From positions 35,960,001 to 36,024,000 of the forward strand of contig OX597824.1 in the NCBI GenBank assembly GCA_951406725.2: 64,000 nucleotides of DNA. Direction: 5' to 3'. Shown one piece after another: positions 5,251 through 58,058 of the stretch (position 1 is its first letter; each line of letters starts with the position of its first letter). A program made the position numbers and the translations under genes. The notes beneath the pieces were generated by a model, which saw nothing but the letters and a program-made list of their open reading frames with translations, did not search any database and had not been told where the DNA came from. This DNA comes from Octopus vulgaris (lineage: Eukaryota).

Positions 5251-5801
5251 GGATCACTACAATTTGTACCTTCAGAATGTATTACATAACTTGTGTTTAC
5301 AGTTAAGAATTAGGACGCTCCGTTCATTAATAGATAAGACTTCAGTGATGCAGAGATAACATTTGTTGTTATAACCATTATACGGTTTGGCATGGGTAAC
5401 GACGAACCATTTTAAATTGTATAGATCTGAGTTTTGTGTCAGGCTATGTTAGTTTCAGGCTGTTAGTTTTCACTTGAGATTTGAAGCTAGAATAGTGGTT
5501 ACCAATTCTGACCTTGAAGGTGGTGCTGTACGAGTCGATATATACATACTTAGAACCTTCCGTCAATACTGTATATTTACATGCAATATTTTTTGTGAGG
5601 CATCTATTTTGTAAGGGACAGGAGGTGGGTCATCTACAGCTGCATAGGATTGGGGTTGTGAGAGAACTGTCCGAAGATGTAGCTTATAGCAGCTCTCGTA
5701 TCGAGTGATGTTATTCCTCTAATTGCCTATTATTGGTGGTGGGTATAACCGGATCGCTTTTGACTCTATAGCTTCTGGAGGAGATACTTCAATCCTTTAT
5801 A

Positions 5802-30681: not shown

Positions 30682-30733
30682 ATGGCAGGCAGTCTGCTTT
30701 CCGTGGATTTTGAGGTTTACGGCCAAGTTCAAG
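30682..30733 (+). CDS. ACYP: Acylphosphatase, first coding exon (MAGSLLSVDFEVYGQVQ-G, phase 1)
   Basis: The translation matches the acylphosphatase N-terminus (cf. vertebrate SVDYEVFGRVQGV). It ends at the donor CAAG|GTAGGT exactly where the similarity stops. Confidence 0.88.
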
Positions 30734-44000: not shown

Positions 44001-46791
44001 CCGAGATGACCTCACGCCCCAGGTCCTGTTGTCATATTCAAACTCAGTGTGTGAAACTCAAATTGTACACATAAGACAACTGAATATCGTCATATGCACT
44101 ACAATTCGCCCACCAGATGCCCCAAATCACTCAGGCATGATTGAAGACTGCCTAACAAAAATAGGAGAAGTCATCACCAACCTTGAACAACACAACAGTG
44201 TATTCTTCATGGGTGACTTTAACTTCCCCAATGTGGAATGGCCTGGGGGGAAGATGCTCTCAGGGATGACACACCATCAGCAGGCACAGGCAGAGTCCCT
44301 GCTCCATCTCACAAATGCCTCTTTCATGGAGCAAATAGTTCTGCAACCAACAAGGGCAGATAATATACTGGATCTCTGCTTCACAAACAATATGGATATT
44401 ATCCATAATGTTAATGTGATGCCGACAATGATCTCGGATCACAGCATAATAGAGCTGTCTATGTATGGACCAAAAGCCCCCGCGGACACACAGCCTATAC
44501 GAAGCATCAACCATCTCTCCAACTTTCATAAAGCAAACTGGAAGTTGATTGAGAAAGAGATCCTCAAACAGGATTGGCCTAAATGTCTCTCCACATCGGA
44601 CATTAACATGAAACACAAACACTTCATGTCCATAATACAAGCCATATGTGACAAATATGTCCCAGTGTGCAGGGCCAGCACACACAAAAACAAAAACAGG
44701 ATCCCTAGAGAAAGGAAGATTCTTATGAGACGACGGAGAAGGATTGCGAACCGCCTGAGCAAGCACACCAAAAGTGGTGAGAAGTCTCGGCTCGAGTGAA
44801 TGCTAATGGAAATTGAGAAAAGTCTGCATCAGTCCCAGGAAAAGGAGAGAGCAGATAAAGAAGCTTGGGTAATAGAAAATATAAAATCAAACCCTAAAGC
44901 TTTCTTTAAGTTTGCCAAAGAGACAGCCACAGTGCACCAGAGAATAGGACCTCTCTTCCAAAAAGATGGCTCTTTCACAGGAAATCCCACGAGGGTAAGT
45001 GAAATACTGAACGAACAATTCCAAAGTGTGTTCACTACACCTCTAGGACACAGGCAAGTAAACAACCCAGAAGAATTCTTTGCCACTTTACCTGTGGCCA
45101 AAGAGGCAAAAATTGAGTACATCAACATCGAAGATGATGATATCACACTAGATGAGATTGACACAAACTCAGCTGCTGGACCTGATGGATTCCCAGCGAT
45201 CCTTCTCAAATCGTGCAAACGAGCCCTTGCAAAACCGCTACAGCTTCTTTTTCAGGGCTTTCTTGCAAGTGGTAAGCTCCCAGTCAAATTGAAAGAGGGG
45301 GTAATATGCCCTATCCATAAGAGAGGTAGCAGAGCAGATGCTAAAAATTATAGGCCTATCTCTCTGACCTCACACATCAGCAAAGTCATGGAACGTAAGA
45401 AACTAATCATGTTCCTTGAAGAAAATGACTTGCTGTCTGACACCCAGCATGGATTTCGACCAGGTAGAAGCTGCCTAACACAGCTCCTGCAACACTATGA
45501 CTGGGTGTTGAAACAGCTACTAAATGGCCCAAATGCGGATGTAATATATCTCGACTTTGCAAAAGCCTTTGATAAAGTCCACCATGGTATGATCTGTCAC
45601 AAACTGCATGGTCTCGGCATAGGCGGAAAACTTGGAGAGTGGCTGCACAACTTCCTAAAAGACAGAAGACAGGCAGTTGTGAGCAATGGAGCCACCTCCA
45701 AGGAAAAACAAATAGCAAGCGGTGTCCCACAGGGCACTGTCTTGGGGCCACTGATGTTCATAGTGGCCCTTTCAGACATGCCTTCAGTTGCTACGATGGC
45801 CACCCTTGCTAGCTATGCAGATGACACAAAAGTCTCCCACACAATACAAAACCCTGAAAATATTGCGCATCTGCAACAGGAGTTGGACACAATATACAGG
45901 TGGGCTGAGGACAACAACATGCAGTTTAATGCAGGTAAGTTCCAGGCCCTGCGCTACCGGCACACAAAGGTAAACGACGTACAGACTGGATACACTGGCC
46001 CAGGAAGAATTGCAATCCCTGAGTCAAAATCAGTGCGTGACCTGGGCATTGACATGAGCAATGATGCATCTTTCCAAGTGCATATTACTAATCTGGTGAT
46101 AAAATGCAGACGGCTAGCTGGATGGATTCTCCGAACTTTCAGAACAAGAGAGAAGGAGACACTGATGGTCCTATGGAAAACATTCGTCCTCAGCTCCCAA
46201 CTATGGTCACCACACAATATAAAATTAAAAGCAGAACTCGAAGCAATTCAGAGAAGCTACACAAAAAAATCGTCTCAATGCAAAATATCAGCTACTGGGA
46301 AAGACTGAAAGTATTAAACCTCTTCTCCCTAGAGCGGAGGCGGGAGAGATATGCGGTGATATACATCTGGAAAATCCTGGAGGGTCTTGTCCCAAACTTT
46401 GGCATTCAAAGTTACCCCAACCGCAGAACGGGGCGCCACTGCATGGTGCCAAAGATTCCAACATCACCATCAAAATACAGGTCCAGATACTGCAACAGCT
46501 TGGGTTTCAGAGGACCACAGCTCTTTAACATCCTCCCTAAATGCCCGAGAGACTTGCATGGTGTGGATGTGGGTTTCTTTAAAACTAAACTGGATCTCTT
46601 CTTGTCGGGAGTCCCAGTTAAACCTACCTCACGAAAGGAGACGCAGATGCGGGCAGTAGCATCGGACTGACTCCCTTGTTGATCAAGTGCCACGTATCAG
46701 AGGTGGATTCACATATTAGTGTAGTTCATTCAGCGGTGGTGCCCCAGCATGGCCGCGGCCTTCGGTCTAAAACATTTTTAAGGATTTAAGG

Positions 46792-48896: not shown

Positions 48897-49072
48897 CACA
48901 TATACACATACTCAAGAAAGTACAAGGTGGAAAAAATAGTATTCGAATGCCAAAACTCAGAGTCTTATTATGGGGACCGAATAATTATCACATATTATAT
49001 TACAGATAAATTCCTCTATTTACATAATATCGAGGTCTTTTTCTTTCTTTTGTTGTTTTACCATTACTCTTA

Positions 49073-53317: not shown

Positions 53318-53346
53318 TTTATAGATATTTATTTATTTTCTAGAAG

Positions 53347-53397
53347 AGCCTCTACAGGACTAGAACTGTTTCATTCAAAATAAATCATCAGGAAGCT
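53347..53397 (-). ncRNA. Type I hammerhead-ribozyme-like motif (left arm of foldback 53331-54141)
   Basis: Minus strand: agcttc-CTGATGA-tttattttgaat-GAA-ACAG.ttctagtc.CTGT-A-gaggct. Confidence 0.6.
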
Positions 53398-53473
53398 AGG
53401 TGACAAGAATAGTTTTGGCATTTATACATTTAGGCAGATTTAAAGTGGTGGTGGTGGGGGACTTTTTGATGTA

Positions 53474-53562
<89 letters not shown>

Positions 53563-53665
53563 GTGAGCGTGTGTGTATGGGGGTGTATATTCTTTTATAT
53601 ATATATGTGTGTAGATATATGTGTGCGTGTGCTTGCATATTGGCATGTATGTGTGTGTGTATTCG

Positions 53666-53703
<38 letters not shown>

Positions 53704-53777
53704 CATGGATATATGTATGTGTATGTATGAGTATGTGTATGGGTGTGTACGTATATGTATGTATATGGGTGCATATA

Positions 53778-53808
<31 letters not shown>

Positions 53809-53815
53809 GTGTATA

Positions 53816-53879
<64 letters not shown>

Positions 53880-54073
53880 AGTGATAGTCTTATTTTTTTA
53901 CCTAAAACTCTATTCTATTATTCTATTTATTCTTTTATCTACTTTATCACTGATTCTTTTGACCACTCCCCTAAGAAAGACAGTTTGCGCCATGCCTACC
54001 CCAAAAAGTCCCCTACCACCATCACTTTTAAATCTGCCTAAATGTATAAATGCCAAAACTATTCTTGTCACCT

Positions 54074-54124
54074 AGCTTCCTGATGATTTCTTTTGAATGA
54101 AACAGTTCTAGTCCTGTAGAAGCT
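54074..54124 (+). ncRNA. Type I hammerhead-ribozyme-like motif with complete helix III (right arm)
   Basis: agcttc-CTGATGA-tttc.tttt.gaat-GAA-ACAG.ttctagtc.CTGT-A-gaagct. Stem I is 6 bp and stem III is 4 bp; the GUA triplet predicts a cut after 54118. Stem II is weak. Confidence 0.7.
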
Positions 54125-54206
54125 CCTTCTATAAAATAAATTAATTTACTCTGCTATGTATTGAGTACCTTATTTACTGTGGTTAACCCCGACTCAACCC
54201 GGGACC

Positions 54207-54261
<55 letters not shown>

Positions 54262-54517
54262 TAATAAATAAATAAAACATATGCATATATACATATATAT
54301 ATATATTAAATTTAAATAATTTAAATTTTAAATTTTATTTTTATATATTTTGTATATTATATTAATTATATTTATTTTTATGTATTGTATTGGTTTATGT
54401 TTTTCACTGCTTGATTTTCCTAATAGTGGTTTTATCTCTAATATAATTTATATTTATACTGTGAAATTTGATTTAATCTTAAATCTAATTTTTCCCTGTA
54501 AATTTGGATTTACTCCC

Positions 54518-54587
<70 letters not shown>

Positions 54588-54689
54588 GGAGTAAGCACAT
54601 AAATGTGAAACAAGGTGGAAAAAAGAGTACTCAAATATCAGAGGTAGAGTAATATGCTTTATTTAAAAGCAGCAGAAATATAACAAAAG

Positions 54690-54727
54690 CTGTTACTCAG
54701 AGTTTCACGTTCCCGTTCGTCGGACAC
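54690..54727 (-). ncRNA. Hammerhead-ribozyme-like motif (left arm of foldback 54657-54829)
   Basis: Minus strand: gtgt-CCGACGA-acg.ggaa.cgt-GAA-ACTC.t.GAGT-A-acag, with a U-to-C variant in the core. Confidence 0.6.
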
Positions 54728-54758
54728 TTTTGTTAAAAAAAAACAACAACAAAAAAAA

Positions 54759-54796
54759 CTGTCCGACGAACGGGAACGTGGAACTCTGAGTAACAG
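54759..54796 (+). ncRNA. Hammerhead-ribozyme-like motif (right arm), GAAA box mutated to GGAA
   Basis: ctgt-CCGACGA-acg.ggaa.cgt-GGA-ACTC.t.GAGT-A-acag. Confidence 0.5.
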
Positions 54797-54828
54797 CTTT
54801 TGTTATATTTCTGCAGCTTTTAAATAAA

Positions 54829-54883
<55 letters not shown>

Positions 54884-55239: not shown

Positions 55240-55256
55240 GTGTATTATTTCGTAAG
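55240..55256 (+). CDS. ACYP: Acylphosphatase 17-nt microexon (G-V-L-F-R-K, phase 1 to 0)
   Basis: Acceptor tgtctttattttacAG, exon GTGTATTATTTCGTAAG, donor GTAAGA. Joined to exon 1 it completes V-x-G-x-V-Q-G-V-x-F-R, the acylphosphatase signature, in the right phase. Confidence 0.85.
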
Positions 55257-55452
55257 GTAAGATCAGTTCTAATTCGCTCTCTCTTTTTATATTACTTTTT
55301 TTTAACTTTATCACAAACTGTGCTACACACATCAATACTTCTACAAGTGTTTAATATCATTTAACATACTTTGTATTTATAACTTTTTAGTTAATCCTTA
55401 ACGAACAGCGTAAAATAATGACAAATATTGGAAGCAACAGAGTATTGTCAAA

Positions 55453-56366
55453 TCTATATATATAAAACTGTAGTTGTGTGAATGTCTGTCCCCTTCGATT
55501 TAGATTCCTAACTACTCCCACATTTTGCGGTACAGTTTAACCAAATTCGGGTATCTTATAGTCGTGATTCATATCGAGCCCGTCTGGGTATTAGCGCGCA
55601 TCTACGATGAGTCTACGATTTTAAAAATAATTTAACATCATTTTTTATTCCATTTTAATGCATATTTTTTCGTGTGTCGATGGCGGCGGAGTTGGCGTCC
55701 ATGCTCACAGCTGCACCTGTGTTGCTTCTCCCCCTTCTTCCCTCCCTCGTGAAGTTGTGGGGAAGGGAGTGTAAGGAAATCAACGTCGTAATGCGTTGTC
55801 AAGGAGACCAGCGTTCTTTTAGAACAACGACTTCATGGCTTGAAGTCGCCAAAACAGAAATCGCTAAAAAAGCTGAAACAGATCCACAAAAACGGCAATT
55901 ACCGCCACACAGGGCAGGTTTCCTGTGCAAACAATTTGCACAACCGAATGTTTTAGTTGTTGCACAAATCTTTATATATAAAAGTAAGGTTGTGTGTCTG
56001 TCTCCTACGATTTAGATTCCTAACTACTCCCACATTTTGCGGTGCAGTTTAACCAAAACCGGGTATCTTATAGTCGTGATTCATATCGAGCCCTTCTGGG
56101 TATTAGCGCGCTTCTACGATGAGTCTACGATTTAAAAAAAAATTTACCATCATTTTTTATTCTATTTAAATGCATTTTCGCTATTATATAAGGGAAGTAA
56201 CTCTCTAAAAATGTCTACGATGAGTCAACGATTTTAAAAAAAAATTACCATCATTTTTTATTCCATTTTTAATGCATTTTTTGCTATTTTTTGGCTATAA
56301 CTCACTAAAAATGCTTATATAGTTATTTCCCTTACAAACCTAAGCAACGCCGGGCGATACTGCTAG
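55453..56366 (+). mobile_element. Non-autonomous Helitron (tandem 5' duplication; second TC start at 55969)
   Basis: A|TC start, subterminal gcaacgccgggcg, CTAG|T end and no TSD. A ~170-bp block is repeated internally. Confidence 0.8.
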
Positions 56367-57178: not shown

Positions 57179-58058
57179 TATATTCGTCCTAACATTTTTG
57201 GGCTTAAGACACGTTAACGACTTTACGTTCCATTTTATTATTTTAATATTTCTTTTTTTTTTTTTTGCGGATAGTAGAAATTTCTAAGCATACCTTGTGA
57301 TTATCCTTTGTGGGTTTTCCTGAAAATTCGAGGTTTGAGAATTCCGTTTACGAAACGTCAGAATGGATTATGTTATTTCGTATCCTACCGTTTAAGTTAG
57401 ATTTAGAATCTGTATTAGGTGTGCAGCGAGGTTCGTTTCATCTTTATTTCTACTATTTAGTATAAGTGTATTATAGTTTTACCACTATCCTTGGTTAGCG
57501 GTTCCTTCTCAATATTAAACTGGCTATTGTTGTTTGTTAGTTTCCTTATTTTCTTGGCGTCAACTCAAGTTTGAATTGCAGTATACACATTCCTTTCCAC
57601 AAATCTAATGAAAAACTTAGTTACATTCACAACAGTTCTAATCACCAAAAATCAACTGTAGATCGATTATTAGTTTGGCTATTTTCGTCAGTTAGTTTCA
57701 TTATTTTCATGGCGTTGTTAACTTTGCCTATCCAACTTTCGGGGTCGATGTAATCGATTGGTCCGCTCCCGCCAATTTTCAGATCTTATGTCTATAATAG
57801 AAAGGTTATATTAAGTTATTCCCACTATTTGTAGTTTTATCAGTTATGTCTCAAGGCATATGCAGGCTTTTATTGTTTTTATAGTTATAACAACCGCTCG
57901 TTATATTGTCACTACTGATGTTAGCCTTATCTGCAATTATAGTATAATTTTCACGTATATTTACTATAACCCTGAGTTTAATTGGTTGAGTTAAAGAGTT
58001 ATGTGGTTCATTAATGTTTTGTATGTTCATGTGCAGAAGTTATTTTAAAATCAGAGTT

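Follow-up and report, generated by a model that had tools for sequence, protein, structure and literature searches.

Head-to-head, hammerhead-bearing insertions of putative Hydra-clade Penelope-like elements in an acylphosphatase intron of Octopus vulgaris

The window analysed here, a 64-kb stretch of the Octopus vulgaris genome whose first letter is position 1, carries exons of an acylphosphatase gene on the plus strand. A 17-nt microexon, placed by its reading frame, joins in frame the upstream coding exon and an exon about 40 kb further on (G000:C11:36054839), yielding VQGVLFRKHLQEMA...GWVQNT. The intron between the upstream exon and the microexon contains two inverted-repeat units, referred to as A and B, with a type I hammerhead ribozyme (HHR) motif in every arm. 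The features are as follows.

30682-30733, plus strand: acylphosphatase coding exon; the 24.5-kb intron that follows contains both units
53330-53468, minus strand: tail-less inverted arm of family A, from 77 nt upstream of the HHR C3 to the inner 3' end at +61, then (TA)n
53347-53397, minus strand: HHR of family A on the antisense strand; C3 at 53391, stem II without its C-G pair owing to a C to A change, U-G pair in stem I
53470-54209, plus strand: tail-bearing arm of family A, with 610 nt of TG/TA-rich 3' UTR, HHR and tail, then (TA)n
54074-54124, plus strand: sense HHR of family A; predicted cut 54118/54119 (descriptor scan and fold)
54135-54140, plus strand: AATAAA at the inner 3' end of family A, read from the sequence
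54142-54209, plus strand: tail of family A, with a TACTC/GAGTA hairpin at 54147-54167; the ORF leader comes next in coding copies
54586-54738, minus strand: tail-bearing arm of family B; HHR C3 at 54723, CCGACGA, GAAA, ACUC-U-GAGU, predicted cut 54694/54693
54586-54656, minus strand: tail of family B, with a TACTC/GAGTA hairpin at 54628-54651
54739-54752, no strand: filler at the junction of unit B, where the extended stem I of each arm has its 5' edge
54753-54829, plus strand: tail-less inverted arm of family B; HHR C3 at 54763, U4C, GGAA in place of GAAA, AATAAA at 54823-54828, then (TA)n
55241-55257, plus strand: acylphosphatase microexon, 17 nt

Both units proved to be genuine inverted repeats, with arms that align at about 94-95% identity in unit A (53331-53468 and 54002-54141) and at 94% in unit B (54657-54735 and 54752-54829). 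A one-sided tail extends each of them beyond the limits given in the first-pass annotation (54142-54209 in A, 54586-54656 in B). Unit A is one insertion, in which a 740-nt tail-bearing arm is preceded by a 138-nt inverted arm, and unit B joins a 150-nt minus-strand tail-bearing arm to an inverted arm of 77 nt. The proposed inverted partial pLTR was thus recovered in both units as a tail-bearing 3' end joined head-to-head with a tail-less inverted 3' end. Judged by alignment, the 533 nt between the arms of unit A are the element's own 3' UTR and not host microsatellite, because 53470-54208 aligns end to end, in one block, with three long family A copies (L063, L064 and L065; 85-90%) and has non-repetitive islands in common with them. 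The earlier picture of inverted repeats amid (TA)n tracts therefore holds for the flanks but not for the TA-rich stretch inside unit A. The AATAAA found at the inner end of both families is, at 54135-54140, a possible poly(A) signal.

The HHR motifs were sought on both strands of the whole window with a type I descriptor (core C[UC]GANGA, G[AG]AA and UH, with stems I-III). It matched four times, exactly in the four arms, against 0.1 matches per window in 40 order-2 Markov shuffles, so that each unit does carry a motif on both strands, as first suggested. The C3 positions are 54080 (plus), 53391 (minus), 54763 (plus) and 54723 (minus), with cuts predicted after 54118, 53353, 54792 and 54694, respectively. 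The sense HHR of family A comprises a 6-bp stem I, CUGAUGA(U), a 3-bp stem II, (U)GAAA, and a 4-bp stem III closed by an 8-nt loop with CUAG and followed by GUA; from C3 to the end of the tail (129 nt) this copy equals the family majority without a single difference. Both A arms hold the type I core (CUGANGA, GAAA and UH) and stems I-III, stem II being weakened in the antisense arm. Unit B departs from the canonical core by U4C in both arms and by A13G in the plus-strand arm; this last arm, previously read with GAAA, has GGAA. U4C is family-wide, with CCGACGA in 57 of 80 sampled family B arms, and GGAA, found in 2 of the 80, is a private change of the plus-strand copy. Since U4C lowers hammerhead activity in vitro considerably (PMC3088659) and is here combined with the private change from GAAA to GGAA, the sense B HHR is probably dead.

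A covariance-model match was not obtained: an Rfam scan of 50-58 kb at E<=10 returned 109 matches, none to a hammerhead family and all of the microRNA-type hairpin noise kind. Variation across copies falls in N7, loop II and the centre of loop III (in family B, U in 39, C in 12 and A in 8, with invariant flanks). The copies are too young to show compensatory pairs in the stems; across families, stem pairing is kept with different stem sequences.

On protein motifs, both units are putatively assigned to 5'-truncated insertions of Penelope-like elements (PLEs) of the Hydra clade. The PLE origin put forward in the first-pass annotation is upheld by HHR-bearing arms that adjoin PLE ORFs, and the motifs narrow it to this clade. 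In 19 of 20 loci found with a PLE ORF, family A sequence stands immediately upstream of this ORF, and two complete copies are organised as pLTR-ORF-pLTR, with ORFs of 722 aa (L235) and 718 aa (L236, which ends at the inner site). The family A ORFs encode an RT followed at the C terminus by a GIY-YIG-type endonuclease between the pLTRs, with YRDD and SYIG motifs. Their proteins carry RWR, DKT, the linker CNCHDKTTC (CxCX5C), CCDLCISE (CxxC before E) and LLN...CMH (CxH after N), and a CCHH motif is absent from these ORFs. The diagnostics given for the Hydra clade in section 11 of Craig et al. 2021 (PMC8557442) are RWK-like (RW[K/R]) and DKT motifs, CxCX5C, CxxC and CxH around E and N and no CCHH, alongside the same type of C-terminal endonuclease, and this agreement supports placing family A in the clade. 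The Neptune and Naiad clades were rejected on motif order and the absence of CCHH. Pfam searches of the family A ORFs, in pieces and at full length, gave no RT or GIY-YIG match; homologues carry PF00078, PF01541 and PF26215. Family B follows broken RT-thumb/endonuclease frames of Hydra type in one locus (L062) and is present in 10 of 25 loci found with this RT-thumb/endonuclease fragment, for which flanks of only 1.5 kb were covered. Its ORF remains are broken C-terminal parts with YRDD (L237), a degenerate linker and LN..RE...C.H, and do not include the DKT region. The units had been called non-autonomous derivatives; they are better described as 5'-truncated insertion products of families with coding copies in other places, whose ORFs are intact in A and broken in the copies of B that were seen.

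Further likenesses to the Hydra clade (PMC8557442) are the (TA)n targets, a U opposite U at the base of HHR stem II, stem III sequences of the form ACUC-N-GAGU or ACAG-N-CUGU, layouts that match the table in File S2, where the Hydra HHRs are given, and an inverted 5'-truncated copy, published for Penelope-13_HM. Among the 30 top family A copies, 29 run into a TA repeat and one into the ORF leader, and family B behaves alike. File S1 of the same study lists Hydra-1_Obim of Octopus bimaculoides, whose HHR sequence is unlike those of A and B, which are therefore other families. Published Hydra elements measure under about 3 kb and have tails of 30-40 nt (PMC8557442), whereas family A reaches about 4.7 kb with a 2.4-kb TG/TA-rich 3' UTR and the tails here are 66-71 nt long; the 8-nt loop III of family A and the family-wide U4C of family B also differ from those elements.

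Other traces of this group were seen in passing. A third Hydra-type family, 46% identical to family A, occurs at G000:C10:12137265 and about 60 other places with many near-identical open frames of 727 codons, and was probably active recently. The long copies L063 (2611-8811), L064 and L065 are nested inverted family A structures with arms of 1.8 and 2.2 kb; L063 and L064 have flanks in common and resemble a segmental duplicate. In the window, a tblastn comparison with the family A ORF gave weak matches (31-46% identity) at 5290-5710 (minus strand) and 57550-57672 (plus strand), read as older Hydra-type PLE remnants, and a 27-nt match to the family B tail region at 48922-48948, beside a TA run, is read as a diverged tail of a related family.

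Exact 26-letter patterns were used to search the 2.8-Gb genome (227 contigs), and matched 1,654 times for the A core, 2,126 for the A tail, 1,805 for the B core and 945 for the B tail, with none for the reversed controls; the density is about one such core per 0.8 Mb. Numbered from the HHR C3, the arms have two fixed 3' ends, at about +61 and +129 in A and at +66 (plus TA-like overlap to +71) and +137 in B, that is, some 66-71 nt apart. In a sample of 30 tail-bearing family A insertions (the first 30 on contig C1), an upstream inverted arm was found in 25, of which 24 end at +58..+61; inverted arms ending at +38..+40 were seen in 2 of the 30. Coding copies read ATATC where the tail passes into the ORF leader, which gives 4 nt of agreement with the TA target. 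The two families, although otherwise unalignable, share the TACTC/GAGTA hairpin directly beyond the inner 3' end, a candidate RT-positioning element. In some B copies (L216, L217 and L230) the arms do not overlap and meet close to the inner site, a pattern like that of twin priming.

Variant sites are common to both arms of one A insertion in 11 of 24 cases, compared with 9.6% between insertions (21 pairs), which points to one source RNA or element; that no more than 11 of the 24 sense-arm variants recur in the partner arm weighs on the other side. Loci L202-L212 were left out of the arm-alignment counts. In 7 of 21 pairs one arm has lost a single base at +39..+44 (54119-54124 in the window), within the 3' strand of stem I and beside the predicted cut site. 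In a test for cDNAs that end at the predicted cut, the base expected there was missing from 110 arms, a mixture of substitutions, deletions and junctions counted with no neighbouring-position control; in 20 of them stem I forms the link to a partner arm that begins at -6.

Inverted 5'-truncated copies with one-sided tails and (TA)n targets (PMC8557442) and opposite-strand HHR pairs (PMC4209133) have been described before, and in these respects the units are ordinary cut-down insertions of high-copy families. What is unexpected in both families is where the arms break off, namely at the 5' edge of stem I of the HHR. Counted over core-holding arms, the distance from C3 to the stop is at most 8 nt in 37 of 44 family A arms, whose stem I has 6 bp, and at most 17 nt in 35 of 44 family B arms, whose extended stem I has about 12 bp; arms of any unlisted subfamily would score too short in these counts. 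Genome-wide, tight head-to-head junctions (two cores within 24 or 30 nt) number 815 in A and 401 in B, and 453 A arms reach -14. By alignment, the tail arm of 21 of the 30 sampled A insertions starts at -8..+3 (18 after dropping three with variant upstream sequence), 5 start between +4 and the tail end (125 nt) and 4 further upstream. In an independent, probably genomic, run the contig depth rises about fivefold at 54074 with 23 loose ends, which shows that the pile-up is not an assembly artefact. A splice acceptor was rejected as the cause of the -6 edge (TAG at -7..-5 in A), given that junctions keep AG and that B mostly has none. No report of arms piling up at HHR stem I was found in the literature covered; the main text of the study by Frangieh et al. 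2024 (PMC11167929) on PAc, a Poseidon PLE from Anolis carolinensis, reports no pile-up of 5' breakpoints at the HHR. The edge likely marks the start of the template RNA, and the junctions suggest that two cDNAs of strong-stop type reached the RNA 5' end, ran off it and were then joined.

We consider it highly probable that the units are single 5'-truncated insertions of Hydra-clade PLEs into a TA repeat, with their 3' ends head-to-head, and likely passive, self-silenced passengers of the acylphosphatase intron. As in vitro work on the anole PLE suggests, the PLE enzyme would open both strands of the TA repeat and prime two cDNAs, the first at the tail end and the second at the inner site. In most cases both would halt at the hammerhead's front edge, which is most likely the RNA 5' end, and would be joined through short homologies with filler. 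Unit B would be a typical product, and unit A a rarer one in which the cDNAs ran 610 and 77 nt further. In PAc the tail likewise lies between two internal RT start sites, both strands of the target are cut and extended, a coding leader follows the tail at the pLTR-ORF junction, and the targets are AT-rich (PMC11167929). It belongs to a clade other than that of the Hydra-type A and B, and its priming is reported to proceed without homology, whereas here the RNA continues as ATAT past the tail end and matches the TA target. Two points favour an RNA 5' end, either a start site or a trimmed end, as the stopping point: the symmetry that paired breakpoints tend to show, and the internal promoter in the pLTR of Penelope (PMC2377424), with the HHR close behind the start (PMC2377424; PMC4209133).

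The same pile-up might instead reflect an RT stop at a folded or protein-bound hammerhead, or later trimming of long palindromes at a brief self-complementary motif within stem I, which we hold to be nearly an even prospect; an RT stop at folded RNA and an RNA 5' end are about equally likely. The 5' strand of stem I holds AGCT in A or TTAA/CTAG in B, and among 50 A junctions listed, 11, about a fifth, are perfect palindromes at AGCT; the B edge, moreover, is blurred over about -8 to -17. The palindromic word alone does not explain the pile-up, as a second AGCT at +41, which belongs to the 3' strand of stem I and is closer to the priming sites, forms the perfect centre only 15 times. The remaining junctions among the 50, and thus most of them, have deletions, templated filler or asymmetry, yet as read here no arm passes -6/-7, and the same junction recurs on different subfamily backgrounds. 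This alternative touches only the cause of the stop, so the identity of the units is unchanged.

Replication of Hydra PLEs may tentatively be pictured as LTR-like, a reading to which we give somewhat less than even weight: the RNA would start at the first base of stem I and end at a poly(A) site inside the tail, and the target DNA would prime two strong-stop cDNAs close to the RNA 5' end, which would have to jump to the 3' repeat for the complete element to be copied. The more than 800 A and 400 B mirror units would then represent jumps that failed, both cDNAs having run off the 5' end before being end-joined, and the genome would record the RNA start at base resolution, with the hammerhead boundary, not the cut site, setting the insertion breakpoint. 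The origin of inverted and tandem PLE ends and the purpose of the hammerhead are both named as open points in PMC8557442 and PMC11167929; copies with intact ORFs and a base-sharp breakpoint offer a direct test of how PLEs make their ends.

A reading in which the short foldbacks propagate themselves as MITE- or retrozyme-like units, each copied as a whole, would account for their very large number and similarity, but is improbable, as junctions differ from copy to copy, either arm may carry the longer extension, tandem arrays of the unit are absent among the sampled loci, and arm-shared variants differ between copies with the same junction. Animal non-LTR retrozymes are likewise short, non-coding repeats that carry a type I HHR and are related to PLE pLTRs, but they form head-to-tail tandems that give circular RNA (PMC7229834; bioRxiv 10.64898/2026.07.22.740005). 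The A and B units are head-to-head, so that no cut-to-cut monomer is possible; head-to-tail tandem HHR units were found neither in the window nor in the sampled loci. Closer counterparts are the minimal metazoan PLE HHRs (Cervera and De la Pena 2014, PMC4209133), type I motifs in pLTRs with palindromic stem/loop III and thousands of solo copies, among them pairs in Schistosoma that lie 100-700 bp apart on opposite strands, akin to the present units. They differ from A and B in that stem II is short here (3 bp).

The first-pass annotation had placed the sense copies about 1.1 and 0.44 kb upstream of the microexon, which agrees with the measured 1.12 and 0.45 kb, and had envisaged that they cleave the host pre-mRNA or pair with their antisense arms into a dsRNA that masks them. 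Folding predicts the second outcome. Single-arm MFE folds are not HHR-shaped and are ordinary compared with shuffles (z -0.9 to +1.3), and whole-unit folds give 155 cross-arm pairs in A and a hairpin of -125.8 kcal/mol in B, with near-perfect duplexes of 138 bp and about 75 bp and HHR pair probabilities of 0.00. As the arms diverge, any transcript through a unit, on either strand, makes the antisense arm first; this arm would block the hammerhead by pairing with it, and a position buried in duplex is thus predicted for each sense HHR.

Cleavage at 54118/54119 by the sense A HHR, sufficient to affect microexon splicing or mRNA level, is accordingly very improbable. The core and stems of this copy are intact and equal to the family majority, the isolated 51-mer has an HHR fold at -7.3 against -7.6 kcal/mol for the best fold, and the 4-bp stem III could permit monomer activity; with an intact HHR and a gap of only 0.3 kcal/mol, some co-transcriptional cleavage may occur. 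With its own flanks, however, the probability of stem I pairing falls to 0.01, and to 0.00 in the whole unit, and the antisense arm is transcribed 0.6 kb before sense A. Metazoan PLE HHRs have shown no activity as monomers and low activity as dimers (PMC4209133), and the PLE HHR was inactive without the PLE protein (PMC11167929). Cleavage of the acylphosphatase pre-mRNA by the HHRs of either unit is unlikely, considering both this predicted burial and the two defects, U4C and A13G, in the sense B core.

Coleoids edit repeat-derived dsRNA heavily by ADAR, and A-to-I editing of the predicted duplexes as a by-product, distinct from any function, is reasonably probable. Contigs of sequencing runs listed no A>G change at a share of 8-10%, which is uninformative on editing since contigs from thousands of copies stack up here and 54727-54829 was in one scan passed over as repeat. 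That these long, near-perfect duplexes of 138 and about 75 bp were co-opted as ADAR substrates to tune the microexon is very improbable, since both insertions are young members of families with well over a thousand alike, the nearest arm end lies 412 nt from the splice acceptor, and nothing marks the A or B copy as selected. With that many insertions the closeness to the microexon needs no special cause, and at a density of about one core per 0.8 Mb selection need not be invoked for two insertions in a TA-rich intron of 24.5 kb. The locus itself, two young transposon scars in a long intron, matters little; the divergent layout predicts self-silenced ribozymes on both strands and could explain why introns tolerate such insertions.

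Several other features of the host gene and its surroundings were recorded. Besides the intron-bearing acylphosphatase gene of the window, which reads VQGVLFRK rather than VQGVFFRK, there are two intronless acylphosphatase genes (L232 and L233; G000:C17:58063558 and C5:30130142). Around position 45730, the acylphosphatase intron also contains a LINE-type reverse transcriptase fragment (PQG...LGP...YADD). Just downstream of the microexon lie direct repeats at 55483-55666 and 55995-56178 (184 nt, 93%) and at 56214-56269 (56 nt), each preceded by a short TA run, which resemble another interspersed repeat family.
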